DNA from: Candidatus Electronema aureum
GTDB taxonomy: Bacteria; Desulfobacterota; Desulfobulbia; Desulfobulbales; Desulfobulbaceae
Assembly: GCA_004284765.1 (NCBI GenBank)
Contig: NQJD01000003.1
Coordinates: 1 to 32,000, forward strand
DNA: 32,000 bases
Reading direction: 5' to 3'
The number at the start of each line of letters is the position of its first letter. Positions within the stretch are counted from its first letter, which is position 1. The notes beneath the pieces are model-generated. The model had not been told where the DNA came from. It worked only from the letters and a program-made list of their open reading frames with translations, and did not search any database. Shown piece by piece: positions 1-31,210 of the stretch. Made by a program: the position numbers and the translations under genes.

Positions 1-335
1 CTTTCATAAGAACGGCGTTTGGCTGGCGGGCATTCGCCCTCTGAAAACTGAGACCAAGTCGGAAGTCAACTTTTTCAATATTATATTGTTTTTAATGGTA
101 AATTCAATGTGTTTTTTAGGGAGCCGTTCGCTTTGCCACTCATGGTTCACCATTACCCGCCCTTGCCAAGGTGGAAGAAAAATACTTTGCTGAATTCTGC
201 AAATGTGACATTCACTTTTTCTTAGGCACAACAAAGCAGTATCACGGATGGGCTAAGAATCCTTTCGTTATCATTGGCGTATTTTGGCCGCCGCACAATC
301 CACAGCTCAGTCTGCCTTTCGGAGCTGAAGAATCA

Positions 336-608
336 TCCCATTTCACGCTTCGATCAGGCCAATTCACAGATACATTGCCCTGATTCACGCTGCAATCACT
401 CTGGTTCACACTGCAACCAAGGCGGTTTAAACGCACATCGGCTTGATTCACGCTTGGAACAGAGCATTTCACGCGGCAAACAGCCTGTTTTGAGCGTGAA
501 TCAGAGCAAACGAAGCGTGAACCGTGTCATTTGAAGGGTGAATCAAGCCGGTTGCAGCGTGAAACGCTTTGACTGCAACGTGAATCAGAGCGTTTCTGGC
601 GTGCTTTT
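336..608. repeat. Array of about 13 tandem 21-bp units with a TTCACGC core: 7 forward copies, then 6 inverted copies, around a dyad near 484
   Basis: The + strand core TTCAC(G/A)C starts at 342, 363, 384, 405, 447 and 468, with a degenerate copy at 426. The complement (G/A)CGTGAA or GGGTGAA occupies 494-500, 515-521, 536-542, 557-563 and 578-584, with a degenerate copy at 599-605. Every step is 21 bp. ORFs across it only translate the repeat (SVNQ...). Confidence 0.8.
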
Positions 609-712
609 CTGCTGAATAAACTGTATCATAACCGGAGGATGCTGGCATTGCGGCGGGCGTGGGCTGCTGCCGGACAGAAAAAACACGTGCTGCAAGAAAA
701 GGAGGATTGATC

Positions 713-1253
713 ATGCGTTTTCCGAACACAGAACCAGAAATCAGGGCCTTGGCGCAGAACATCATCACTGGGCTTACGAACAACCCGAACTTTCCCTCGC
801 CGCCGGTTTCGGTCGCCGAGCTGCAAAATCAGCTGAACGCGATGATTCAGAACAGCGACGCGCAGGTTGCGGCTCAGGCGGCGGCGAAACAAGCCACGGA
901 CACCAAGCAGGCCTCGGTTGACGAGATGACCGGCTCGGTTAGGCTGGGGCGGCAGGGCGGTTCCGCGCCCGTTGCAGGTGCCGGGCCAGCCGAGGCTGCT
1001 GGAAACAAGGCAGCAGGGAGCTGGCTGGCTGACGCTGGACTGGAAAAAGCCTGCGGACGGCGGCGCGGCGGCCTCGTACAAAATCGAGCGGCGCGGACGC
1101 GCTGAGGGCGACTGGAAACTGGCCGGAATATCGGTTGAAACCGAGGTCACACTCAATAATCAGGAACGCGGCAAGGAATTGGAATACCGAGTTATTGCAA
1201 TCAACAAGGCGGGCGAGGGCGCGCCAAGCAACATTGTGACGGCAGTGCTGTGA
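713..1253 (+). pseudogene. Fibronectin type III domain protein, split over two frames. The N-terminal helical part runs from ATG 713. The FN3 domain is in the frame that opens at 930.
   Basis: Strong RBS aaaggagga lies before ATG 713. The N-terminal part is MRFPNTEPEIRALAQNIITGL... The FN3-like C-terminus (WLTLDWKKPADGG..YKIERR..EYRVIAINKAGEG) sits in another frame, which is closed by TGA at 927-929 and open from 930. The first frame then runs into Ala/Gly/Arg-rich nonsense. Confidence 0.7.
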
Positions 1254-1462
1254 ATCAAGCGGGCCGGATTGCATCATGTTCATACGACGAAGAAGGAAAG
1301 TCGTCCGGCCCGCTGTTCCGCATTATCTTGGACAAAATCGAAGAGGCGCAGATGGAACGCGCTATCAACACCCGTGCGGAAGCTCTGGCCTTGGCCGCCG
1401 CCATCGCCGTGAACCCCATTCATAACGCCGCCAAGTCAGAATCGTCTTCGCAAGAGACATGA
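1250..1462 (+). CDS. Hypothetical small protein (70 aa), possibly translationally coupled to the FN3 gene
   Basis: The GTG start overlaps the FN3 stop (GTGA). No recognisable domain. It contains an 11-bp-stem hairpin (agcgggccgga...tccggcccgct), so it may be noncoding. Confidence 0.25.
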   Translation: MNQAGRIASCSYDEEGKSSGPLFRIILDKIEEAQMERAINTRAEALALAAAIAVNPIHNAAKSESSSQET

Positions 1463-1478
1463 GCCGCAAGGAACGTAT

Positions 1479-2270
1479 CTACAACACAGGGACTTTTTGC
1501 ATCCCTATAGCCGGCAGCATAAGCACCGATCCACAGCGTCCGGTGATGCCCGGTCTCGCCTGCTCTTTGGTTGCCCGGCGATAGGAAAAGAAATCTTGGT
1601 TGCAAACCGTGCAGATACCTGCGGTGTCGATTTGCTCAGACCTCACTCCGGCCGCTATGAGCTGTTCCTGGCTGACTGCCCAGAAATCAAAGCAGTTCTC
1701 CTTGACCTGATGCCGATGCAGTGATGCAGGCAACTCTGCCCGCCAGTTGACAAACTCCGCGCAGCAAGGGCCAAGCGAAGGGCTGATAACCGCCCGCAAA
1801 TCAGTCGGATCAGTGCCAAACCGCGCCTGCATAAGCTGCACCGTAGCCGCGATAATGTTCAGCACACTGCCTTTCCAACCATTGTGCACCGCCGCAATCA
1901 CCGCCCGCACCGGATCGTGCAGCAGCACTGCTTGGCAGTCCGCCTGCTGAATCAACAAGCCCACGCCCCGCTGGTTTGTGACCAGGGCATCTGCCCCCGC
2001 ATATTCAGTGTCCTTGCTGATTGTTTCGTCTGCCACGAGCACCCGGTCGCCGTGTACTTGCATTGCTGAGACAAGATGCTCTATCCCCAAGCACTGCTTG
2101 ATGAGCTGCCGATTCGTCGCTACGTCTTTTGGCCTATCACCCACGCCATAGCTGAGGTTCAAGCTGGTAAAGGGTGGCGCACTTACCCCGCCTTGCCGAC
2201 AGAACATGCCATGCGGCAGATCAGCAAGCAACATAGAGCGGTGTACTGGATTACAAACGGTCGTAAGCAT
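1479..2270 (-). CDS. pgeF: Peptidoglycan editing factor PgeF / YfiH (DUF152, laccase-domain family)
   Basis: Family-typical motifs: FCRQGGVS, GADALVT, QQADCQAVLL, AAVHNGWKG, GPCC. Confidence 0.85.
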   Translation of the reverse strand: MLTTVCNPVHRSMLLADLPHGMFCRQGGVSAPPFTSLNLSYGVGDRPKDVATNRQLIKQCLGIEHLVSAMQVHGDRVLVADETISKDTEYAGADALVTNQRGVGLLIQQADCQAVLLHDPVRAVIAAVHNGWKGSVLNIIAATVQLMQARFGTDPTDLRAVISPSLGPCCAEFVNWRAELPASLHRHQVKENCFDFWAVSQEQLIAAGVRSEQIDTAGICTVCNQDFFSYRRATKEQARPGITGRCGSVLMLPAIGMQKVPVL

Positions 2271-2301
2271 CGTTAGCAGTCATTACCCTCAAGTTGCATG
2301 G

Positions 2302-2336
2302 CAAAAAAAGAAGGCAGGAATTTCCCCCTGCCTTCT
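2302..2336 (-). terminator. Rho-independent terminator after the alpha-2-macroglobulin gene
   Basis: Stem agaaggcagg (2309-2318) pairs with cctgccttct (2327-2336). A T-run follows on the minus strand (the A-run at 2303-2309 on +). Confidence 0.75.
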
Positions 2337-2358
2337 GTCATAAGGTTTCGCTACCTTG

Positions 2359-5300
2359 TTATTCTTTTTTGATCACCGTTACGGCACTTGACTTATTCCG
2401 CGCTCGGTATTCAGGCCGATACATTGCCTCGATCTCTGAGGGCGGTGCAGCGTACGTACCGGGTGTGACCGCACGGACTAAATAGGCAAAGCGGAAGGGC
2501 CGTACATTGGGGTTCCCTTCAATATGCGCCAACTGCTCGGTGTCAAAAGCAACCACAAAGCGGTCGTCTCGTGCATCGGTATAGCGAGACGAACTGAGTT
2601 CAGCTAACCAGCTAAAGGATGCTGCTTCTGTACTCGTTATCGGCTTCTCAATCTCAAAGCCCGCAGGCAGCAAATCAATCAGCAAGGACTGGAAGTTACC
2701 GCCTTCTTTTGCCTCGCCCTCGACCAGCACCACAGCCAGCTCACCCTGTGCTACCTTGTCCAGAGACAGTGACTCGCCTGCGGTATTATACCAGCTCCGC
2801 CGAACAGCGAAGCCGTTTTCTACCGGTGCAGGCTCGTTGATCGGCGAACCCTGCACGGTTGTTACCACCCAGACTGCAATATTGCCCTTGTTGCGCAACG
2901 TGACGGGGTGAGTCAGCAGAGCATCGCCACTGCGATTGAGGGAGAAGAAGGAGGTTTTGGTCTCTGCCGGTTTTGCCTCCTCTTTGGGGGTATCACTGAA
3001 GGCGGAGAGAAAGCGGCCTAAGAACGAAGGTCGACTTTTTTCCTCTGGCTTCGGCTGCGGTGCGCTGCTATCCGTTACTTCTATATCAAGCGCCTGTCCC
3101 TTGTCTAAGGTCAGAGCAGCCATGATTAAGGCCGCCTGTTCTTGGGTGGACATATACTTTCGTTTGGAGAGCAGGCCGACCAACTCTTGCCACGCTGCGG
3201 CAGGATCAATTTGCTTCAGGCCCGTGTCACCAAGAATGCTGACGATACTTGCTACATCACGCAAGCGAGAGCCATAGCTCCACCAAGAAGCAGCCTCGGT
3301 GTCTGCTTTCCGCAAGGCCGTTGATAGACCTTTTACCGCCCGGTCGTGATCGCCAAGCAAGGATAGTGTTCCGGCCAGCTGGGCTTGGGCTAATGGTGAA
3401 CCGATGCTGTCAAACTTGGTATCAAAAAGGTAACGGGCATCTTCATGCCGAGCCTGACCAGCGCGGGCTAATACCCAGTGCGCATAGGCCAACGCTTCGA
3501 TATGCTTATCCTCGCTGCCGCTGTTCTTGACTTCATTAGTCAGCCAATCTAAGCCCTTTTTGTAGAAGTAATCTGGCACAGCAAAGCCCTTCTCCTGCGC
3601 TCGACCTAAGAAATCCATCGCGTATGCCGAGAGCCACGGCTCAGGATCGCTGGTATCTGACCAAAGACCGAAGCTACCTTCACCAAGCTGTTTTTGCAGA
3701 ATCAGTTCAATCGTCTCCTGTACCCGCATGGGCAGCTTTTTATCGACAGGATAGCTGAAGCGTTCTGCGAGCTGATTGGCGTAAAGCAGCGGCATAGCCC
3801 GACTGGTTAATTGCTCCAGACAGCCGTGCGGATAACGATCTAATTCACCAAGCAACCCAGCTACATCAACATTGGGCGCACTGGAAATACTGAGATCAAC
3901 CTTGGCGGTGGCTGGGTACAGGCCATTCAGTACCGCTTGATTCAGACTGATGACTGCGCTTGGCTCCATTTTGCTATAGCTGCGGGTCAGCGTGGGGAGA
4001 TATTTGCCGCGCACGTTAAGATCAAAGTCGCCTGCATAGCTGTAACTCTCCGGCCCAGTTACGCTCAGATGCAGCTTGCCACTGCCAATACCAGAAGCTG
4101 TTACTGGAAAACTGAGGCTCTGCCGTTTACCGGGTTGGAGTTCGGCTGTTACCGTGCTGCTGGCCATCGTCACCGCGCCCTCAGCTTGCCAAGCAATTTG
4201 ATAATCACCTGCCGGGCCGTCGATGTTCTCAAGCAAAAGCTGAATGCTGGATTGATCGCCATCTGCTAAATAACGCGGTAACGAAGGTGAAATCACCACC
4301 GGATCGTTAACTCGCAGGGCGCGGCTCGATGCACCAGTTTTCTCTTTTGACCACGCCACAGCCATCAGGCGCAGCTTGCCGTTAAAGTCCGGGATATTCA
4401 ACGGTACAGTGGCAATGCCGTCTTGTTCCGCCTTAACCACGCCAGAGAAGAGCGAGACGACCTTGACGTTGGACTGCGGCGCACCGCGCAGACCATCTTC
4501 GCCCGCACCACTACGCAGGGTAAGTGGTTTGCTGTCCGGCGGAATGATCAGCTGACCGTACATGTCGCGAAGATCGAGACCAAGCTGCTGTTTTGCAAAG
4601 AACCACGCCACAGGATCAGGCGAGACAAAGTTCGTCAGTTGCAGCACGCCCTCATCCACGGCGGCTAAGGTCAGGCGAATTTCACTGCCTGCCTCTGCAC
4701 CCTTGACGCTGATCGGCACTTGCAGCACTTGGCGCGGTCGCACCTGTTCTGGCGCAGTAACCGTCACCTCTAACCGCTGCGGGGCAGAATTCACTGGCAG
4801 CCAAATCAAACCCACGGCTCGGTCTGCGCCCTTCTTTTCCTCTTTGCCGGGGCGATAAACCGTAAGCAAGGCATACACGCCCGCACCCCAGCCGTCTTCA
4901 ACCGGGATGTCAATGGTCTGCTCTTTACCCGTGAGGGCAAAGTTACGCACTCCATTCACTGTGGTATTAGCCAACACTAAACTGGCTTGGCCCAGATAAG
5001 GCGCAGTCAAAGTCAGCTTGGCTGTATCGCCAACCTTGTAGTCTTGCCGGTCAAGCACTACCTTAACTGAATCCGGTGTGTCGCTCTCGCCAACGCGCTG
5101 CTCGCCAGCAGTGAAACGCAGGGTGGAGAGCAGAACCTTGTCCTTGGTCAGCAGCTCCAAGCGGTATTGCCCCTGACCTGCTGGAACAGATATCGGTTGC
5201 GGCCCAGCCTTGTCCAACGTGAGCTGTCCGCGCTGCTCCTCTTGATCGCGGACAATCCGCTCGTAGGCCCACTCGCCGTCCTTGTGGAACCACTGGTAAT

Positions 5301-7861: not shown

Positions 7862-9768
7862 CTACTTTTTGTCGCAGACCACGGCGTGAGCAACAACCTT
7901 GAGATAAGCCGCATCGCCGCTGACATTAACCTCGTAGCTGTCAATGAATGCTTTATTCAGCCCTTCATGCAGATTGCCGTACTGATTAGGAAGCGGAGTT
8001 GCGACATTCGTTGCTCCTACATAGAGATGCGTTGCACTCATGCCGACATCATCAGTCATCTTAAAGGTAACGGAAACTTTTGTCCCTTCATATTTTACTG
8101 TCAGTGTGCCTACGTTCACTGCTTTGCTTAGGTCGTTTTCTGTCGCGCTGGTATAAATCGGCTGCGTTAGGGTCTGGCCTTTATTTATGTTAATCTGCCA
8201 GCCCCAAAGATTGGCAGCCAAAATATCATCTAACTCGGTCTGGCCAAAGCCAAAGGCGGTTCTACAGCTGCTCCCCGCATCCCGACAAATGATCCAACCG
8301 TTCTCGTCAACACCGACCATGAAATCGCCCTCATAGCATTGCACTGACGAGGTTGGCGCGATGGCAGATTCTGCCGCTGAGAGAAAAGACAGCGATGTTG
8401 TTGAAATGCTTGATGAGGTAGGACAGGTGCATACGCCTGGGAGTCCTTGCGGGCCTTGTGGGCCTATAACTCCGGCTGGACCTTGCGGGCCTGCTGGCCC
8501 TTGTAATCCCTGCGGCCCTGTCGGGCCAATGATACCCGGAATCCCCTGTACTCCTTGTGGGCCAGTAGCACCGATCGGGCCGGTGTTGCCCGTGTCGCCT
8601 TTCAACCCCGTATCACCTTTAGGGCCAATTTCACCCTGTGGGCCAACAGCACCGACCGGGCCTATCGGGCCGGTTGCACCGGTAGCTCCAGTTTGACCAA
8701 CTGGGCCTATTTCTCCCTGCGGGCCGGTGTTGCCGGTGTCGCCTTTCAACCCCGTATCACCTTTAGGGCCGACTTCACCTTGTGGGCCAGCAGCACCGGT
8801 GCTCCAGTTGGGCCTATCGGGCCAATTTCTCCCTGTGGGCCTGTGTTGCCCGTGTCGCCTTTCAGCCCCGTATCACCTTGTGGGCCAGCAGCACCGGTTG
8901 CTCCAGTAGCACCAGCCGGGCCTATCGGGCCAATTTCTCCCTGCGGGCCGGTGTTGCCGGTGTCGCCTTTCAACCCCGGATCACCTTTAGGGCCGACTTC
9001 ACCCTGTGGGCCAGTAGCACCGATCGGGCCGGTATTGCCCGTGTCGCCTTTCAGCCCCGTATCACCTTTTGCTGCCATGAGTTCCCAACAGCCAACAGGA
9101 GCAGGGTCACGTGTAGGCTCTACCCCTTTTATAGACTTGCAGCAGGTGTTGACATAGCTACTGCCGCCATGCTGAACAATACTGCCAGCCTCATACACCA
9201 AGTTTTCCTGCCAAGCACCCACCCAAGAAAATTCATTTTCTTCACATTCTTCTGTAGGCAATGTGCTTTCTCCTGTACAAACCTCTGCTTGGGCAGCGGC
9301 AAGATATAACGTTCTACCTGCATAGGAGGAAACATCAATCGCATAGCTATCCTTAACAGCATTGATCAAGGATGGATGATGATATTTACTGTATTGACCA
9401 TGTGCGGTGGTTGGGGCTTTTTTATCACCGAGATAGAGGCTGGTCTCGCTCATTGAGAAACCTTTCAGCATGACAAAGGACACTTTGAGCAGATTTCCTT
9501 CATGCTTGATTTGTAGGCTGCCCGCGAGTGTGCGTGAAGAGAATTTCTTTCCCGTCCCTACATAAATCGGCGCAGTCAAGCTATTATCAGCTTTTACAGT
9601 GAGTTGCCATCCTCGCTGCCAAGGATCATTTTTTTCCGGAGCTTCATTGAATTTTTTTTCTCCATAAGCAAAGGCCGTTGCGCATTTTTTCTCCTCAGCT
9701 TGGAGATTAGCAGCTGCCAATAGAAGCGACGCAAGGCATAAGGTTGCCAATTTTATTTTTATTTTCAT
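7862..9768 (-). pseudogene. Secreted collagen-like triple-helix repeat protein with two copies of an uncharacterised Cys-bracketed globular domain. The frame is broken at about 8800.
   Basis: RBS GGAGG precedes ATG 9768. Signal peptide [26 protein letters not shown]. The G-X-Y run continues across the junction of ORFs 8746-9990 and 7862-8749. The upstream ORF leaves the G-X-Y frame after GPIGPTGAP. Confidence 0.75.
8435..9069 (-). repeat. Collagen-like G-X-Y coding repeats (about 70 triplets) built from reiterated [20 protein letters not shown] units
   Basis: Near-identical nucleotide blocks recur, for example accttgtgggccagcagcaccgg ending at 8799 and at 8897. The antisense ORFs read as PCGP/PVSP runs. 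Confidence 0.9.
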
Positions 9769-9816
9769 AAGAGCTACCTCCGCCGCAGCAGTTAAATTTT
9801 TCTCCTTCTTTTTTGC

Positions 9817-9822
9817 ATTATA
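9817..9822 (-). promoter_or_regulatory. Candidate -10 box (perfect TATAAT on the minus strand) for the collagen-like gene
   Basis: ggggTATAATgc lies about 50 nt upstream of ATG 9768, in the 220-bp AT-rich divergent region shared with recC. The -35 is only approximate (TTGTGC). Confidence 0.3.
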
Positions 9823-9988
9823 CCCCGTTGCGCCCTTGTTGCACAATAGGCATGTCTCTTCTTCTAAGGATATGTTACAATTTAACACCTGATATACTGC
9901 TAACCTAATAAATGCAAAGCAGATCAATCGTAATGACAAGATAGATGACCTTTCTTTAATTTTCCCAAATCGTTTGCACTGATTATCC

Positions 9989-12900
9989 ATGTACCTTTAC
10001 CAATCCAACCGCCTTGAAAACCTGCTGACCGCGCTCTGTGCTGTTCTCGCGCAACCGGTCGGTAATCCCTTAGCCTCAGAAATCATCGTAGTGCAAAATC
10101 CGGGTATGGCTCGTTGGCTCTCCCAGCAAATTGCCCTACGCACAGGCATTTGTGCCAACAGCTCTTTTCCGCTGCCTGCCTCCTTCATCTGGAGTCTCTT
10201 TGCTAAAACCCTTGGCGGTCTGCCAGACCTACGCGAGTTCAATCGTGAAGTGCTGCTCTGGCGGATATTGGCCAAATTAGACAGCTTGCTGGAACTGCCC
10301 TCAATGCAGGAAATCAACGCCTATCTGCGCGACGACCGCGACGGCAGCAAAGCCTTCCAGTTAGCAGGACGGATCGCTGATCTCTTTGATCAATATTTGG
10401 TTTATCGCCACGACATGGTGCTGGCTTGGGAAAAAGGCCGGGAAGAACATTGGCAAGCCCAGCTCTGGCGGCAGCTGACTGACAGTGGTAGTACGCACCG
10501 GGCCGAGGTGCTGGAACGCTTCCTGCAAGCGGCAGACCAAGGTGTATTGCGCACCGATGGCCTACCAGAGCGAATCTGCATCTTCGGCATCAACTCGCTG
10601 GCCCCGGCTTACATAGAGGTGATTGGAAAAATCAGCCACCACATCGACATCCGCGTTTTCCATTTCAGCCCCTGTCGCCAAGTCTGGGACGACATTATGC
10701 CGGAACGTCTGATTGCCCTCAAGCGGCAGAACTGGCGCAGGCGCGGCACTGCCGATATCAGCAGCTACTATACTTCCGGTAATCCACTCTTGGCTTCACT
10801 CGGTGGATTAGGCCGCGAGTTTTTCAAACTGTTGATGGAATTGAATCCGATGGCCGAGGAGCAAGACCTCTACCAAGCCCCACCGCAGGACAATCTACTT
10901 GGTCAGATTCAGGGCGATATTCTTGATCTGCGCGACCGGGGCGATCGGAGCAAGGGCGAGACACTGCCGCTGAAGTCGGGTGAATCTTCCATTCGTTTCC
11001 ACTGTTGCCACAGTCCGATGCGAGAAATCCAGGTGTTGCACGACCGCCTACTTGACCTCTTCGCCGCTGATCCACAGCTTAACCCAGCGGATATTTTGGT
11101 CATGGCCCCGGATATCAATCGCTATGCCCCAGCCGTGGCTGGAGTTTTTAGCTCGGCTGGCGGCAAGTTGCGTATTCCTTGGTCAATTGCTGATCAATCC
11201 TGCCGCGAAGAACAGCCGGTGCTTGAAGGCTTTCTTGGCCTACTGACGCTGGTCACCAGCCGTTGCACCGCCCCGGAAGTAGCGGCGATGTTGGAAAACC
11301 CAATTATCCTTGAACGCTTCAGCCTGACTGAGGATGAAGTCCCGCTGCTACGAAAAATGATCACCGCCGCAGGCATTCGCTGGGGCTTGGAGCAGCGGAG
11401 CGGGGCAGACGCACTCCATAGCTGGGAGACTGGGATAGACCGGCTCCTGCTTGGCTGCCTGACCGGGCAGTTAGACGCACCTTGGCAGGGTATCATGCCG
11501 ATCAGCGGTGGCCTGAGTGAAGGCGGCGATTGGTTAGGCAATTTGGCTGAATTTATCCGCGAACTACGGCGACTCCGACGACAAACAAGTCGTCCATTGC
11601 CTCCGGTGGGCTGGGGCAAACTCTTTCTCCGCGTGATCGACCGGTTCTTAGACAGCGGTACTGATCAGCACAACGAAGGCCTGCTTCTCCTCCGCCAGAG
11701 TATTGCTGATTTTGTCGAACAGTGTAAACGAGCTAACTTCCAGCAACCGATCAGCCTCGCCGTTATTCGTCGTCATTTTCAACAGCTTTTGACTGCTCCA
11801 GCAGGCGGACAGGCGTTTCTTGCGGGCCGCGTCACCGTCTGCAATATGGTGCCGATGCGTTCAGTGCCTTTTAAGGTAATCTGGCTGCTCGGTATGAACG
11901 ACGGTGACTTTCCTCGCTCTCAGCATCCGCCCGCCTTTGATTTGATGGCCGAACACCGCAGGCCGGGCGACCGTAGTCGCCGCGACGACGACCGCTATCT
12001 TTTCTTAGAAGCTCTGCTCTCGGCTCGCCACCATTTTGCCGTTTCTTGGGCTGGACGTGATCTGCGCGACAACAAACCTCGCCCGCCTTCAGTAGTGGTG
12101 GCAGAGCTGCGTGACTACATCAGCCGAGGCTGGATAACTGCGGATGACACTGCCGCTGCTGATCAGCTCACCGTGGAGCATCCACTCCAGCCCTTCAGTC
12201 GCCGCTGTTTTGACGGCAAAAATCCGAACACTGCCTCGTATCGGACTGAATGGTTGCCCGCCTCTGGCAAACCGGTGCCGGTGTTCGCCAGTCGCCCTTT
12301 GCCACAGCCAGAGCAATGGGCGCGGCAGATTGATCTAAACCAGCTCGTGCGGTTCTGGAAACATCCGGTACGTTTTTTCCTTGAACAGCGACTCGGCTTG
12401 CGCACCGCCTATCTATCTGATGTGTTGCTGCCAGAAAGCGAGTCGTTTGCCCTTGATCAGCTCCAAAATTATCAATTAGCCGATGAAATATTGCATGAAA
12501 TTCGTCACGGCAGGCAGGCTGACTGTCCCTTGCATCGGCGACAAGCAGCAGCTGAATTACCGGGTGGTTGTTTCGGCCATCTTTTGCACCAAAAAATGCA
12601 GACCGAGGCGACAGAACTGCTCGGTAAAGTGAAGCCGCTGCTCTCGCAGCCGGTGGAGCCTGTAGAACTCCGACTGACCATCGACGGGGTGCGGCTGACC
12701 GGGCGACTCACCTCGCTTTGTCGTTGCGGCAGAGTTACCTTCCGGCCTGCCAGCCTCAAGGCAAAAGATATACTTGAACTCTGGATTCATCACATCGCTT
12801 TGCTCCTGCATCAGCCTACTGGAGTGGAACCACAATCGCTTCATGCGGCCAAAGATAAAACACTCTGCTTCCAAGAGGTACCTGATCCGCATGACCAGCT

Positions 12901-25920: not shown

Positions 25921-26928
25921 ATGCCAAAGATTGTTCTCGAATTGCGGCATGACGCAATAAGCGAGAGTTGCTCACTTGGTGAGCTGTTACGCAAGGCCTT
26001 GGTCGTGGCGAAGAAGCTGCATATCACTGACTTTGAGCTGTGGGCAAGCCACGAACTGAACGGCTATCCTCCCGGAACTGAGATTCCACAATACCGCGAG
26101 GTCGTCGGCACTATTAAGGTATTGGATGCTCACAGGGGGTGCTGGATTCCTTTCATCATTCAGGGACCATATGCTGATGCCGCCTCCAGAAGAAGGATAA
26201 ACGAAGCAGTCGGTTCTCTTGAGGCACTTGTGAGCGATCAGGAACGCGGCAACTTTTCACTTCCTTTTCCTCCAGAGATTGAGGCACGCCTCATGAGGGA
26301 GATGGATTTTCCAACGCAGCTAATGCTTCAATTTGGCTCCAGCCAAATTCATGGCATCTTGCAAGCTATCAGAAACACTATTCTTCACTGGGCACTTGAT
26401 CTTGAGAGTAGAGGCATACTGGGAGATGATATGAGCTTCACATCCGAAGAGCAACAGGCTGCTAAGAAGATGCAAACCGTCAACATTGAGTACTTCCAAG
26501 GGATTCTGGGTGATGTCAAGCACAGCACAGTGACTCAGAATCTGAATATGGATGTCCGAAAAGGAGACTTTGATTCGCTGGCTGCTTACCTGCGGTCAGT
26601 TGAGGTGGAAGAGGCGCAGATTGCTGACCTGAAGGAGAGAATCAAGCAAGATCCGGTTCCGCAAGGCAAGGACAAGCTGGGACCTAAAGTTAGCTCATGG
26701 ATTGGAGAGATGGTTGGCAAAGCCGCATCAGGAGGTTGGCAGCTCGCAGTTGGAACAGCAGGCAGCCTGCTGTTCCAACTGCGAGCTGCCTATACTACGG
26801 ATTCGTCTGATCGAACCAGAGCCGCAGGCCGCAGACTGGTTAGGAGCATTATGCCTCACCCGGAGCGGGCTGAAGGTCCGCCGTGGCTGCGCATGTTCCA
26901 GAATGCACGGGAGTGGTGCAAAGAATGA
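25921..26928 (+). CDS. AbiTii-domain-like protein whose ORF reads through into a purL-like C-terminal remnant
   Basis: The N-terminus ...SLGELLRKALVVAKKLHITDFELWASHELNGYP...IPQYREV fits the AbiTii domain pattern as I recall it. The last 26 aa, IMPHPERAEGPPWLRMFQNAREWCKE, resemble the C-terminus of FGAM synthase. Confidence 0.6.
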   Translation: MPKIVLELRHDAISESCSLGELLRKALVVAKKLHITDFELWASHELNGYPPGTEIPQYREVVGTIKVLDAHRGCWIPFIIQGPYADAASRRRINEAVGSLEALVSDQERGNFSLPFPPEIEARLMREMDFPTQLMLQFGSSQIHGILQAIRNTILHWALDLESRGILGDDMSFTSEEQQAAKKMQTVNIEYFQGILGDVKHSTVTQNLNMDVRKGDFDSLAAYLRSVEVEEAQIADLKERIKQDPVPQGKDKLGPKVSSWIGEMVGKAASGGWQLAVGTAGSLLFQLRAAYTTDSSDRTRAAGRRLVRSIMPHPERAEGPPWLRMFQNAREWCKE

Positions 26929-26983
26929 CGCATGGGGCAGCTTGCCTGTCCCGCCCTCAAAAGCACAGGCATCTTTCCTGCGT

Positions 26984-27045
26984 CGTCATACGTATGACGG
27001 CAGATTCGTGATAGGTATGACGACAACGCCATGATACCTATCACG
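26984..27045. promoter_or_regulatory. Three operator-like 16-bp palindromes with 23-bp centre-to-centre spacing
   Basis: cgtcatacgtatgacg (26984-26999, perfect), cgtgataggtatgacg (27007-27022), catgatacctatcacg (27030-27045). Half-site CGT(C/G)ATA(C/G). A fourth copy, cgtcatacgtatcacg, lies at 25246-25261. Confidence 0.65.
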
Positions 27046-27106
27046 ACACGTTCGCATCGAGTATCATCTCCTCCGTCTGAGAATCATTCTCATTACAAAA
27101 AAAGCC

Positions 27107-27135
27107 TTGACAAGGAAATGCCGCAGCATTATGCT
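27107..27135 (+). promoter_or_regulatory. Sigma70 promoter TTGACA-N17-TATGCT for the HU-like gene
   Basis: TTGACA at 27107-27112 and TATGCT at 27130-27135, about 60 nt upstream of ATG 27195 (RBS ggag). It shares the 11-mer cttgacaagga with the minus-strand promoter at 25717-25727. Confidence 0.55.
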
Positions 27136-27194
27136 GCCGAAAATCGTTTCTCCTCTCTGTTTGACGCAGTCTTTCCTCAGCATTGGAGCATGTC

Positions 27195-28275
27195 ATGGCA
27201 ACAATTCAATGGCGGCCCGAACCTAACCCCCTCACCGTTCCCTATTCTTGGAAGATTCGCTTTGTGCCCCGCGACTCATCCGGGACAGACGAGCTGGCTG
27301 TCGCGATGAACGAGGAGAATCCGAACTACAGCGTGGAAGATGCCAAAACCATGCTGGCCCTCCTGAAGCGAGTTATTCAGAAGAAATTGCTCAACGGCGA
27401 ACAGGCGACCATAGACGGCATGATCACGTTCGGCTTCTCCTTCACCGGCAGGTTAGACACGCCGGACGACCCGCTGCCGCCGGTTGACGAGACCCTGCAT
27501 GTGGATGTCCGGGTGCTTGCACCTTTTTTCAAGGAGATCAGGCAGCAGGCTCGCTTTGAGAAGCTGCCCATGACCGAGAAGGGGCCGGTGATCGACAGCG
27601 TTGAAGACACCCGCCTGCATCTGGCCGATGTGCTCAACAGCAAGGGTGTGCTGAAGCTGACCGGCACCAACCTGCTCTTCGACCCGGAGGTCGAGGGCAA
27701 TGGCTGCGTGATCGAGGGCACCCGCAGCTGGCAGGCGGCGCAGACCCAGTTCGGGCCGCTTGCCGATTCGAGCATTGTCATTGTGCCTGATATTCCTGCC
27801 CAAGACGCGCCCTTCAACAATGAGTACACGCTCTCGGTCTCAGCACGGCCCAGCGGCCACGGCAGCCCGCGCACCGGCACCTACCGCAGGAGGCTGCGCT
27901 CACCGCTCGCTGTGACCAAGCTGGGTCATCCGAATCCGCCGGAGGTCGGCATCCTGACCGGCAAGGCTGCCAATCCTTTGGCGAGCGTGACCGGCGGCAC
28001 GGTGAGCGCGGATGAAATGCTGCGCATTCAGGCGGTGTTCGACATCAGAAACAGCGTGCTGCTCCTCAGTTTGCTCGGCATGAAGGAAAACGGGCCTGCG
28101 GGCGCGGCAGTGACAGTTGCAGCCAACGGCGCATACACCGTGCCGGGCTTCAGCGGGTCAGCGGTCGGTCAGCAGCCTGAGCGTCCGGGTCAATGACTAT
28201 GCCGCCTTGGTGGATTTGGTGCGGGATCAGTATTATGGACGGCTGGTGGATGTGTTGGAGGTGAAGACTGCATGA
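27195..28275 (+). pseudogene. HU-like DNA-binding N-terminal domain plus DUF4469-like Ig-type C-terminal region. The last ~27 codons sit in a +1 frame.
   Basis: The in-frame ORF ends at 28196. The overlapping frame, open from 28114, reads ...SLSVRVNDYAALVDLVRDQYYGRLVDVLEVKTA and stops at 28273-28275. Family assignment is from memory of architecture, not a search. Confidence 0.5.
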
Positions 28276-28290
28276 TGTGAGATGCGCTTG

Positions 28291-28329
28291 AATAAAAAAC
28301 CGGCAGCAGCAATGCTTCGCTTCTGCCGG
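28291..28329 (-). terminator. Terminator after the PHP hydrolase gene, between convergent genes
   Basis: Stem ccggcag (28300-28306) pairs with ctgccgg (28323-28329). TTTTTTATT follows on the minus strand. Confidence 0.6.
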
Positions 28330-28358
28330 ACGGCATGACCGCGCTGCTGCTCCCTTGT

Positions 28359-29981
28359 TTACTCGTAGGTCACAACCAGCTGCGCCGCTTGGCTGGCCGA
28401 GCCTTCATAGGCCTCAGCAGTGCGCTCGCCGGTGCCGGTGATGATGATCGCCATGCCGTTGTTGGCTGACCAGCCAGTGCGGTTGACGATCTCCTGCACG
28501 ATGTCCTTCAGGTCAGGGGTCTGCTGACCTGCGCCTGCCTGGCCGACGGTGCTCCAAGCCACTGGTGTCCAAGCTACAGAAGCCGTGGTGGTTGCGCGGC
28601 TGCTGATGTTGTTGGAAGCCGTGGTGAAGGTGGCCGCATTGTCGGCAGCTTGGCCTTTGATGGTCAGGCTGGTTGTGCCGGAGTTGGTCTCATCCACGGT
28701 GAACTGGATGTAGGCATTGGTGATGGTCGCTCCCTGCGGAATGCCGAGGTTGGCGAAGCGCATCCCCACGTACTGATTGCCAGTGGTGGAGGAGTCATAG
28801 ACCAGCTCCAGATCAGAGCTGTTCAGCGTCACCACGCCGCCGGTCTGCCGCTGCTCGGCATCGTCGCTGCCTGTTGCCACCCGTGCGGAAACCGTGGAGC
28901 TGCCGCCGCCTGCTGTGCCGGTCATGGTGATGGGTGAAGAGATGGCCTCGCCGCCGTCCTGCTGCGTCACCTTCACATAATAGTAGTCGCCTTCAGCTGC
29001 GGTCACGCTGCCGGTGATGATCGGATGGGCCTGATTGGGATTCCACGTTTGCGCAACCGCGCCGTTCTTGATCAGCTGCACGGTGGAGAAGACCTCGCCG
29101 TTGCCGTCATTGGCTTCAATGCGCAGCGCATGAGTGGCCGGATCAAGCACCGAACCCATTTCCGCGCTGCTCAGGGTGAAAGAGAGCGTCAGGTTCTTGT
29201 CGAGCGTGGAGAACATCCGGCGGGCCTGCATTGCCTCCATGATCGCAGTGCGGGTCTTGGCTGTGGCCAGCACGGCCAGACGGTAGTCGGTGTCCGTGCC
29301 CCACGTGGCGGTGTGGTTGTCGTCGCCGCCTGCTGCGCCGATGTCCCAACCACGAGAAATGGCCTCGTCAAAGAAGCTCTTGCTGCCGTCGTTGGTGTAG
29401 TAGCCGTCGTTGTAGTAGTAGGTGTCGAAGTCGTCGGCCTTGTTGAACAGCTCCATGCCCACGAACTTGTCAGACGGCGCAGTGGTGAAGTGGCTGAACT
29501 CGCGGCTCTGCCCATCCTCGCGACCCGGATGGTTGAAGAAGGCCACGCCGCTGCGGGCGTTGAGCCATGTCACCAGCTCAGTGAAGGTGTCAGTGGCTGT
29601 GCTGCCCGCAGAGCAGTAATCATCCGTTCCGATTACGGTGACATGGCCGTAGTTGCCGCCGGATGACCACTCAAAGCCCCACAGGGCGACAAAGTTGCCG
29701 TCGCTGTTGTAGGTGTTCGCCGTGTTCTTGATGGTCGTCCACTCCGTGGAGCTGATGCCTGAATCATGGTCGGCCAAGCTGAAGAAGTCCAGCCCAGCAG
29801 TGTCCCGCGCATAGGCGTAGGCCTGAGCAGGAGTGCCGGAGCCGTCAGAGACGTTGGAATGGTTGTGCAGATGGCCGTAATAGACATTATAGCTTGCTAA
29901 TGCGGGTGCCGTAGCACCAAATATGCCCATACAGGCACCTGCAAAAACAGAAATCCCCAGTTTGCTGTAGCTCTTTTGCAT
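28359..29981 (-). CDS. Secreted PHP-family (CehA/McbA-like) metallohydrolase with beta-rich C-terminal domains
   Basis: Signal peptide, then YGHLHNHSNVSDG...FFSLADHD...FFNHPGRE...GGDDNH metal-ligand motifs. Confidence 0.7.
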   Translation of the reverse strand: MQKSYSKLGISVFAGACMGIFGATAPALASYNVYYGHLHNHSNVSDGSGTPAQAYAYARDTAGLDFFSLADHDSGISSTEWTTIKNTANTYNSDGNFVALWGFEWSSGGNYGHVTVIGTDDYCSAGSTATDTFTELVTWLNARSGVAFFNHPGREDGQSREFSHFTTAPSDKFVGMELFNKADDFDTYYYNDGYYTNDGSKSFFDEAISRGWDIGAAGGDDNHTATWGTDTDYRLAVLATAKTRTAIMEAMQARRMFSTLDKNLTLSFTLSSAEMGSVLDPATHALRIEANDGNGEVFSTVQLIKNGAVAQTWNPNQAHPIITGSVTAAEGDYYYVKVTQQDGGEAISSPITMTGTAGGGSSTVSARVATGSDDAEQRQTGGVVTLNSSDLELVYDSSTTGNQYVGMRFANLGIPQGATITNAYIQFTVDETNSGTTSLTIKGQAADNAATFTTASNNISSRATTTASVAWTPVAWSTVGQAGAGQQTPDLKDIVQEIVNRTGWSANNGMAIIITGTGERTAEAYEGSASQAAQLVVTYE

Positions 29982-30212
29982 CGCTCTTTCCTCTGTGAAG
30001 GATCCAATCTATGCTGCTTGATTGCAGCACCACCGAATCTAAGCAGGAAAAAGCAGAGTTTGATGAGCTTCAGGTTAGTTCTCTGTGAGAAGCAGAGGGA
30101 TGAGCCTGTTCGTTAATTCTCTTGCGATCTTTCGCAGGCGCGGTATAGTTCCTTGTTCATGCTGAAGAAAAACGATGCAGCAGCATATCCAAATACATAC
30201 AGGAACGCACAA

Positions 30213-30350
30213 ATGAGCGAAAAAAAGTCACCCACAACCAATCCGCCGCGCCCAATCCCGCAGCAGAAGCAGCAAAAGCAAGGGCAGAACAAGGGCTACA
30301 ATGCGCCTCCTCCTCCCAAGCCGCAAGTGCCGTCAAAGAAAGGCCGATAA
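30213..30350 (+). CDS. Hypothetical 45-aa Pro/Gln/Lys-rich basic peptide
   Basis: RBS aggaa lies 8 nt before ATG 30213. The sequence MSEKKSPTTNPPRPIPQQKQQKQGQNKGYNAPPPPKPQVPSKKGR is low complexity, so coding status is uncertain. Confidence 0.3.
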   Translation: MSEKKSPTTNPPRPIPQQKQQKQGQNKGYNAPPPPKPQVPSKKGR

Positions 30351-30469
30351 GTACAAGGATGGGGCTTTTTGCTTGATACAGTTGACGTTATCAACGCATT
30401 TGCCCCACCATCATTTCAATAGGGAAGTTTATGTTTTGATTGCGCGAAAGACCGCTCTTGTCGATTCCA

Positions 30470-31210
30470 ATGAACCTACAGGAAGACCCGATAAAACCCG
30501 GCGAAGGCCATCGTCAACGGTTACGTGACCGATTTCAGGCCCAAGGCATGGACGCTCTGACCGATACTGAGGTCATTGAACTGCTGCTGACATTCGGCAC
30601 GCCTCGTTCCGATTGCCGTCCTTCAGCGGAGGAAGCCATGCAGCGGTTCAAAACACTGCCGGAAGTTTTAGACGCGCATCCAACAGCCTTGGAAAAGGTC
30701 AAAGGCATGGGGCCAAAAAACATCTTTGCTCTTCAATTCATTCAAGGTGTGGCACGGCGTTATCTCCGCCAGCGAATTCAGAAAAAGAACTACGTCACCT
30801 CATCTAAAGACGTGGCCGATTATCTCATTCATGCCCTGCGCAGTCTGCGCCGCGAGGTTTTCATGGCCGTCTATCTTGATGCCTCGCACGCAGTCATTGA
30901 CAGCGAAATTCTCTCTGAAGGCACCATCAACGTCAATACCGTTTATCCCCGCGAATTGATTAAGGCAGCACTGTCCCGCAATGCTGCCGCCTTGGTCATC
31001 GCCCACAACCATCCGTCGGGTAGTCTCCAGCCTTCGGCGCAGGACGAACAGCTCACCCGCACACTCTTCCTGATGTGTTCTTTCATGAATATCAACTTGC
31101 TCGATCATCTGATTATCGGTGCGGGCGAGACCGTCTATAGCTTTGCCGATCAAGGTCAGATGGCTGCTGTCCGCAACGACTGCGCTGCCCTTCGCTCTCG
31201 GCTGGCCTGA
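30470..31210 (+). CDS. radC: RadC-family JAB-domain protein
   Basis: GHRQRLRDRF, the TDTEVIELLL helix-hairpin-helix region, and the HNHPSG JAMM motif. Start is ATG 30470 or TTG 30440. Confidence 0.85.
   Translation: MNLQEDPIKPGEGHRQRLRDRFQAQGMDALTDTEVIELLLTFGTPRSDCRPSAEEAMQRFKTLPEVLDAHPTALEKVKGMGPKNIFALQFIQGVARRYLRQRIQKKNYVTSSKDVADYLIHALRSLRREVFMAVYLDASHAVIDSEILSEGTINVNTVYPRELIKAALSRNAAALVIAHNHPSGSLQPSAQDEQLTRTLFLMCSFMNINLLDHLIIGAGETVYSFADQGQMAAVRNDCAALRSRLA

Follow-up and report, generated by a model that had tools for sequence, protein, structure and literature searches.

What does a mirrored block of thirteen 21-bp repeats do when it stands just upstream of a small gene with an FN3 domain and no open reading frame (ORF) spans it? 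The question is raised by the left end of a 32,000-nucleotide stretch of Candidatus Electronema aureum DNA (contig NQJD01000003.1, positions 1 to 32,000 of the forward strand), here called the window. The first-pass annotation had read the array chiefly as an iteron-type replication origin or a partition centromere, and had mentioned a cooperative regulator landing pad as a secondary suggestion. We find that the window holds one pseudogenised member of a conserved array-plus-gene module, and that the secondary suggestion is the reading that best fits the data: with a probability of roughly 0.45, the array is a same-face, multi-site protein landing pad that controls the adjacent promoter.

The array occupies positions 337-610 and has the following parts:

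337 to 483, plus strand: distal half-array, seven 21-bp units with a TTCACGC-like core, core starts at 342 + 21i
485 to 610, minus strand: proximal half-array, six 21-bp units reading GCGTGAA on the plus strand, cores at 494 + 21i
468 to 500, no strand: central dyad at which polarity switches, arms 468-483 and 485-500, 81% complementary, symmetry centre at base 484

The thirteen units, seven forward and six inverted, and the polarity flip at a short dyad are thus present as annotated, with one phase per strand. The forward cores start at 342, 363, 384, 405, 426, 447 and 468, and read TTCACGC (four times), TTCACAG, TTCACAC and a degenerate TTTAAAC; the inverted cores start at 494, 515, 536, 557, 578 and 599, and read GCGTGAA (three times), GGGTGAA, ACGTGAA and a degenerate GGCGTGC. 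There is one degenerate unit per half (426 and 599), and unit 363 is weak too. All 11 TTCAC pentamers between 336 and 608 fall into a single phase on each strand (position modulo 21 equals 6 forward and 13 reverse); elsewhere in the window the density of this pentamer is 2.3 per kb. With a weight matrix built from the 13 units, 10 units score 19-25 bits and the three weakest 9-12 bits; good cores are found in only 10 of 13 units, and the mean identity among units is 54%. No site above 11.3 bits was detected over the remaining 31.7 kb; within the window, then, the unit is not dispersed. The lack of any ORF spanning it was likewise confirmed.

Mirror-related unit pairs were no more alike than other pairs (identity 0.56 versus 0.54, permutation p = 0.33). 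We conclude that the array is a polarity flip of one repeat family and not a long perfect palindrome, and a recent inverted duplication was rejected as the source of the mirror on the same ground. Orientation makes no difference to unit similarity (0.54-0.56 between forward and inverted units, 0.54 among forward and 0.52 among inverted ones), as would be expected if both halves served as the same kind of duplex site.

To place the array in a family context, loci that encode homologues of the FN3 protein were fetched, first three (L124, L125 and L126) and then eighty more from metagenomes; L-numbers denote loci of the analysis, and WIN the window locus. The strongest self-similarity lag is 21 or 42 bp in 59 of the 69 family loci with at least 300 bp of upstream sequence, which come from cable bacteria, Planctomycetes, Sumerlaeota and sediment metagenomes. 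Clean arrays, with 9-19 units (mostly ~12-13) at exact 21-bp spacing, were found in more than 40 loci. Conversely, the 447 kb of fetched loci contain 71 lag-21 arrays, of which 63 directly precede a family gene; among the other eight, two are the window array in L001, two (L170 and L200) precede the second of two tandem family genes, and four (L147, L173, L206 and L207) were not resolved. We define the module by six or more units at a 21-bp period whose end lies no more than a few hundred bp upstream of a family gene on the same strand, and the window has this layout. The genes that flank the module vary from locus to locus. In L124, L129 and L128 the left neighbours differ, and the alignment to WIN ends exactly at the first unit. 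The FN3 gene, which had been labelled accessory, is therefore the one constant partner of such arrays.

The period of the array is invariant. Neither slips to 20 or 22 bp nor phase-breaking indels were found, despite a unit identity of ~54%, and the mean lag profile peaks at 21, 42 and 63 bp only, with a self-identity of 0.57 at lag 21. A faint 7-bp sub-period is also visible within units (self-identity ~0.29 at lags 7, 14, 28 and 35, versus a baseline of 0.235), a hint that the 21-bp unit may derive from three heptamers. The traceable family-wide ancestral unit is approximately GAGGCAtTTGAAGC(G/T)TGAAAt, and the GCGTGAA core of the window corresponds to its AAGCGTGAA part. The proximal half has the orientation seen in other clades, which carry AAGCGTGAA-type units, and it is the distal half that is inverted relative to the family norm. 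In most arrays all units run in one direction. Only in the Electronema clade is the distal half inverted, i.e., in WIN, its orthologue L124, which has the same mirrored array before the gene, L129 and, more weakly, L128. Conservation of the arrangement in homologous loci, on which the earlier proposal had been made to depend, thus holds for the period but, outside the closest clade, not for the mirror.

Between array and gene, a candidate promoter was recognised, and the relevant features are:

599 to 605, no strand: core GGCGTGC of the last degenerate unit, at about -37 to -31 of the inferred promoter, the place of a -35 element
622 to 629, plus strand: inferred -10 region of the FN3 gene, TGTATCAT here, TGTATAAT in L129 and TGTATATT in L128
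700 to 705, plus strand: Shine-Dalgarno sequence AGGAGG, read from the sequence, with GGAG kept in the orthologues
713 to 1253, plus strand: FN3-family gene (pseudogene), N-terminal frame 713-1105 and FN3 frame 972-1253

The array ends at 610 and the ATG of the FN3 gene is at 713. In the Electronema clade the -10-like element lies ~82 nt before the ATG. Its TGTAT does not vary among WIN, L124, L129 and L128, and neither does GCGTGC in the last unit. The -35 is weak (GTGCTT), and the last degenerate unit overlies its position; judged from these elements, transcription would start near position 636. The best site in a weight-matrix promoter scan falls between array and ATG in both L129 and L128. 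Elements resembling a -10 are also present at the proximal array edge in L154 (TGTGATAAT) and L157 (TACAAT), and in the L143 clade a canonical TTGACA-17-TAGAAT stands between the array and the gene. Promoter spacings of the sigma-54 and extracytoplasmic-function types were looked for inside the units, but no fit was seen by eye.

The family protein is acidic and ~200 amino acids long; its C-terminal domain is of the FN3 type and its N-terminal domain is helical. The latter is confidently predicted to consist of a helix at residues 7-21 and a long helix at 34-87, which would form a helical hairpin. At E <= 0.001 there are 230 homologues, from Electrothrix, Electronema, Sumerlaeota, Planctomycetes and many metagenome bins; the matches of a profile search of 1.84 billion representative proteins were dominated by giant multi-FN3 proteins. 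Against Pfam fn3 alone was matched, PADLOC gave no match, and NCBIfam and PHROGs gave weak sub-threshold matches to unrelated families; beyond the FN3 domain no significant match was found in Pfam, NCBIfam, PADLOC, PHROGs or PDB sequences. In the window the gene has lost ~20 codons and suffered a frameshift near 940-972. Over both pieces it is 93-95% identical to the intact orthologues P0001 (L124) and L129; the preceding array is undamaged, with 92% identity to the array of an orthologue whose gene is intact. Two variations of gene structure were noted. In L199 (949-4233) the family member is fused N-terminally to a 1094-amino-acid protein, with a 12-unit array still upstream, and in the tandem family-gene pairs of L170 (1396-3000) and L200 (1036-2677) a 21-bp array precedes the second copy only.

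How could such an array act on the promoter? The module would comprise about a dozen 21-bp units, set at exactly two helical turns, followed by the gene for the acidic helical and FN3 protein. We propose that the units form a row of weak, partly dyad-symmetric sites on one face of duplex DNA, and that an oligomerising DNA-binding protein encoded elsewhere would fill them cooperatively. The candidate promoter combines a poor -35 with a good -10, and the last unit covers the -35 position; a protein bound there would therefore switch the promoter, activation being slightly likelier than occlusion. The inverted distal half would still be usable because a symmetric or orientation-tolerant binder reads duplex sites, and compared with L129 this half is conserved as well as the proximal one (core 0.83, spacer 0.79). 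The FN3 protein itself is unlikely to be the binder, because both of its domains are acidic (mean isoelectric points 4.9 and 5.8); its N-terminal helical hairpin belongs to no known family.

A coding role was considered and set aside. Many arrays contain stop codons in all six frames, and no frame is consistently open; a coding heptad (7-codon) repeat was suggested by L140 alone, which is open as MRHFQLR repeats. Clusters of restriction or methylation sites were rejected as well. Some units contain AAGCTT, AGATCT, CAATTG or GATC, and methyltransferase genes are found nearby, but no 4- or 6-bp palindrome is present in every unit, and the sites are not those of the enzymes encoded next to the arrays.

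The first-pass annotation had suggested that a cognate binder may be encoded to the left of the window, and what was found on that side is an insertion sequence (IS):

1 to 158, minus strand: right end of an IS1-family element, which is not part of the module and marks an interruption of the native upstream flank
137 to 158: IS1 terminal inverted repeat, assigned from the repeats at 12113-12134 and 13007-13028 of L001
107 to 80, minus strand: IS promoter TTGAAT-16-TATAAT, within the IS1 end

The element is ~916 bp long in total (12113-13028 of L001), has imperfect 22-bp terminal inverted repeats, and carries the InsA zinc-ribbon and IS1 DDE (InsB) ORFs immediately left of the window. Its insertion point, 178 bp upstream of the array, coincides with the stop codon of a 224-amino-acid ORF of no family; further leftward follow a DUF488 protein and a CCA-adding enzyme. 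No Rep, Par, primase-helicase, RHH, integrase or regulator gene was detected in this left flank (L001), so that the binder is not encoded where it had been expected. The sole AT-rich stretch near the array (~60-125) belongs to the IS. The locus is chromosomal (2.94-Mb chromosome OW818638.1).

Several observations weigh against a landing pad. Unit sequences diverge strongly among clades: L126 (Electrothrix scaldis) has ~13 units of cGATTCACACTTCAATCAGGA before its gene, and even the two E. aureum paralogues differ, with TTCACGC-type units in the window and ~12 direct units of GAGGCATTTGnGGTTCGGAAy in L125. A single sequence-specific factor cannot read all these arrays. Because the two E. aureum arrays share so little sequence, either paralogue-specific factors are encoded elsewhere in this genome or recognition depends on geometry. 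Between WIN and L129 the identity is 0.77 over the array, 0.815 in the core and 0.74 in the spacer, values close to the 0.67-0.76 of four-fold sites, so selection on the exact sequence is weak. No recurrent regulator gene was found beside the module by all-against-all clustering or Pfam scans of the upstream and downstream genes. To our knowledge, twelve or more tandem sites are far above the number used by known activators. In several probably planctomycete-type clades the array extends to within 13-30 nt of the ATG, at the ribosome-binding site, with no recognisable sigma-70 promoter between. In L171, L199, L193, L190, L177 and L165 the array is followed by GC-rich hairpins; this feature and the preceding one are what a transcribed leader might show. 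Finally, of 44 arrays, 34 have a sense strand that folds more stably than the antisense one (median z = -3.45), a preference that tracks a mild G+T skew.

The last three observations are those expected if the array acts as RNA, transcribed as a long 5' leader or as a separate repeat RNA. Each 21-nt unit would then form a small hairpin with a G-rich linker such as GAGGCA, and the RNA would bind a protein or ribosomes or modulate read-through into the gene, much as in type III toxin-antitoxin loci and in leaders that carry repeated motifs for protein binding. The units are partly palindromic, and the palindromes are kept although they are built around different sequences in each clade, which is also consistent with such an RNA. 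If pairing were selected in RNA, however, wobble should be enriched, and G-T mismatches exceed A-C mismatches (280 versus 228) no more than base composition predicts; the hairpins after the arrays have no T-tails. The -10-like elements downstream of the array are conserved in the cable-bacterial and L143 clades, and the inverted half of the window units would yield the complementary RNA, yet it is equally conserved and homogenised. The acidic partner protein matches no RNase or toxin family. Rfam 15 gave no match at E <= 1 in window 1-2500, and none at E <= 0.1 over the arrays of 11 related loci. We regard an RNA-level element as unlikely, although it deserves to be kept in view: on balance, a duplex-DNA role upstream of a promoter is best supported for the window array, and an RNA role is possible for the family.

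Weak selection on sequence combined with a rigid period could also mean that the array is structural DNA whose in-phase bends give a curved or easily wrapped segment of ~270 bp upstream of the promoter. Selection would then act on period and copy number only, and the sequence would drift while recombination homogenised it; the strict period, the copy number of ~12-13 and the near-neutral sequence evolution are all as such a model predicts. In two wedge models the ratio of end-to-end distance to contour length is 0.45-0.62 for WIN, L124 and L129, against ~0.9 for periodic shuffles (top 0-5%), and L163, L137, L125, L131 and L144 are predicted to be curved too. These wedge models are crude, and for the AAGCTT-type and AAGCGTGA-type clades, which make up about half of the arrays, they predict straight DNA, often straighter than the shuffled controls, so curvature was rejected as a universal property. 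Cores are, moreover, somewhat better conserved than spacers. A sequence-independent structural role is distinctly unlikely on this evidence.

The same near-neutral divergence of orthologues, and the homogenisation of units within arrays, would be left by a functionless minisatellite that arose once by tandem duplication, hitch-hikes with the gene and stays in register through unequal recombination. In L129 a clean deletion has removed precisely one 21-bp unit of the proximal half, and in the window the array persists beside a pseudogene. What makes this explanation quite improbable is that the array persists at similar copy number and position down to ~50% protein identity and across phyla, which is hard to square with the deletion bias of bacteria; the absence of phase-breaking indels and the better conservation of cores than of spacers point the same way.

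The neighbourhood of the module bears on the question of an origin. In several lineages the module is the head of an operon, in which the stop codon of the family gene overlaps the start of a DNA methyltransferase gene that is followed by a restriction enzyme of the MvaI/BcnI, EcoRV or XamI family (L181 1679-4043; L185 3562-5923; L184, L205, L172, L183 and L188). Other downstream genes encode LamG, 23S_rRNA_IVP/bAvd-like, PDDEXK_3, PIN and DarT proteins or are small island-type genes. The module appears to be the leading element of accessory or defence-type operons. Across the array from the family gene, divergent genes encode a DnaG-type primase plus an AAA protein in one lineage (L185 1-3013 and L169 1-633, both minus strand), and in its relatives a Toprim protein (L180 1-1443, minus strand), a RecD2-like helicase (L194 1-907, minus strand) or a PD-(D/E)XK nuclease (L205) at the same position. 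The divergent primase, Toprim and helicase loci suggest a mobile-element context.

A second type of repeat, ATCCTGT heptamers at 9-bp spacing in opposed sets (ACAGGAT...ATCCTGT), lies between array and gene in some clades, and a related TAATCCTTTAATCCTGTTC is found upstream of the array in Electrothrix-type loci. These repeats (L140 ~2560-2800; L131 ~690-790; L139 and L138; L126 5535-5560; L154 ~105-130) may be a miniature inverted-repeat transposable element or another operator. In a scan of the genome collection for four TTCAC cores at 21-bp spacing, the matches listed included unrelated 7-bp and 21-bp tandem repeats, and none of those listed encoded a family member. Also among the matches listed were 11-12-unit TTCAC arrays every 21 bp in Gemmatimonadales, Pyrinomonadaceae and others (L074 1842-2077, L067 5964-6178 and L110 199-434), with no FN3-family gene nearby.

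An iteron-type origin or partition centromere of a mobile element, of which the cable-bacterial copies would be remnants, shares its geometry with plasmid iterons and parC-type centromeres and could draw on the primase-side loci and on the frequent location of the module in variable islands with restriction-modification and toxin genes, but it is very improbable, because the array travels through many, mostly ordinary chromosomal, contexts with an FN3 gene as constant partner and no replication or partition gene, one chromosome holds two different arrays, the family is present in only one of 2.9 million viral contigs, and neither an AT-rich unwinding region, a DnaA-box cluster, a P4-type iteron nor a parS site adjoins the array. 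Actin-like, tubulin-like, ParA, ParR and RHH genes were absent from the window flank, from L001, and from 59 downstream and ~29 upstream neighbours of related loci. The likeness to iterons bound by the phage P4 alpha protein, mentioned in the earlier annotation, did not survive a direct search: the type I octamer TGTTCACC, which P4 repeats in ori/crr, has 40 matches in the window at up to one mismatch, and none within 336-608. Likewise, the chromosomal parS palindrome TGTTNCACGTGAAACA has no match in the window at up to 3 mismatches, and some units resemble only a half-site (GTTTCACG). The primase-side lineage is the reason why a small probability is kept for an origin-like role there; such a role leaves the association with the FN3 gene throughout the family unaccounted for.

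Elsewhere in the window, a small accessory cluster at 25921-31210 includes an AbiTii-domain protein (25921-26928), a protein with a weak match to an HU-type DNA-binding domain (27183-28196) and RadC (30440-31210). One or more minus-strand genes with collagen-like Gly-X-Y repeats occupy 7862-9990, where a 108-bp stretch is duplicated in tandem (8810-9021).

In Rfam, in four protein-family libraries and in literature searches we found no counterpart for an array of this size that keeps a strict period while its sequence drifts and that stays with a single gene family across phyla; the array-gene module is apparently undescribed. A broader proposal, which we put forward only tentatively and consider possible but doubtful, is that it is a self-contained module that has spread horizontally in several phyla, often at the head of restriction-modification, toxin or accessory operons, and that the array is a new kind of regulatory scaffold. 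Such a scaffold could be a platform for a filament- or ring-forming factor that co-evolves with the array, an element read by its geometry, or a repeat RNA that works with the acidic FN3 protein. If so, this would be a cis-element set by geometry (two helical turns, about twelve times) and not by sequence, retained beside one small gene family in cable bacteria, Planctomycetes and Sumerlaeota as well as in many uncultured bacteria of sediments and digesters. Knowledge of the array reader would provide either a natural case of cooperative control of a promoter at very high order or a repeat-RNA system of a new kind, as well as a handle on an abundant, uncharacterised protein family and a clue to the place of the module before restriction-modification and accessory operons. 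The arrays also account for the frequent breaks of metagenome contigs just upstream of family genes.

Among known systems, type III toxin-antitoxin loci (ToxIN, CptIN, TenpIN) have repeats of 34-45 nt in 2-5.5 copies, which are transcribed and cut by the endoribonuclease toxin. The module resembles them in having tandem direct repeats just upstream of a gene for ~170-200 amino acids, in repeats that differ among homologues and, in some clades, in a hairpin between repeats and gene. It differs in its 21-bp units in ~12 copies, in an acidic FN3 protein that matches neither ToxN/AbiQ, CptN nor TenpN, and in hairpins without T-tails.

Type II and type III partition centromeres include parC of R1, with two sets of five 11-bp repeats, parC of pSK41, with 20-bp repeats, and tubC. 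As in parC and tubC, a phased repeat block overlaps the promoter of the adjacent operon, and the known blocks are coated by protein into a regular superstructure; those centromeres, however, precede parMR or tubRZ, operons that themselves encode the binder. The iterons of plasmids and phages (RK2, R6K, F, P1 oriR/incA and the lambda O sites) are similar in that units of 17-22 bp are spaced ~21-22 bp apart directly upstream of a gene, and the P1 incA iterons occur in two orientations. Iterons adjoin a Rep gene and an AT-rich unwinding element with DnaA boxes, whereas here these are absent and the neighbour is an acidic FN3 protein.

Sites for LytTR regulators (AgrA, ComE, PlnC/D, AlgR) consist of 9-bp direct repeats with 12 bp between them. 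Their mention in the first-pass annotation was apt as regards the 21-bp centre-to-centre spacing, and a 7-9-bp core with a variable spacer of ~12-14 bp upstream of a -35 is a further likeness. They usually comprise two repeats and not thirteen, inverted units are not a LytTR feature, and neither a consensus match nor a nearby LytTR gene was found here.

The sites of OmpR (F1-F3 and C1-C3, 20 bp each), the pho boxes of PhoB (22 bp) and the direct-repeat units of Streptomyces PhoP are occupied cooperatively, and the proximal site stands in for the -35. OmpR and PhoB sites are built of two direct half-repeats of 10-11 bp, whereas self-identity here is 0.23 at lags 10 and 11, against a baseline of ~0.235, and 0.57 at lag 21. 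There are 1-4 sites in these systems (up to ~10 half-units for PhoP), compared with 12-13 full units here, and the sequence of those sites is conserved across targets, whereas the units change from locus to locus. What they share with the window is the layout, with contiguous sites every two helical turns or so upstream of a poor -35. By this comparison, the closest parallel to the window array is a landing pad for an activator or repressor, much extended and abutting a weak -35.

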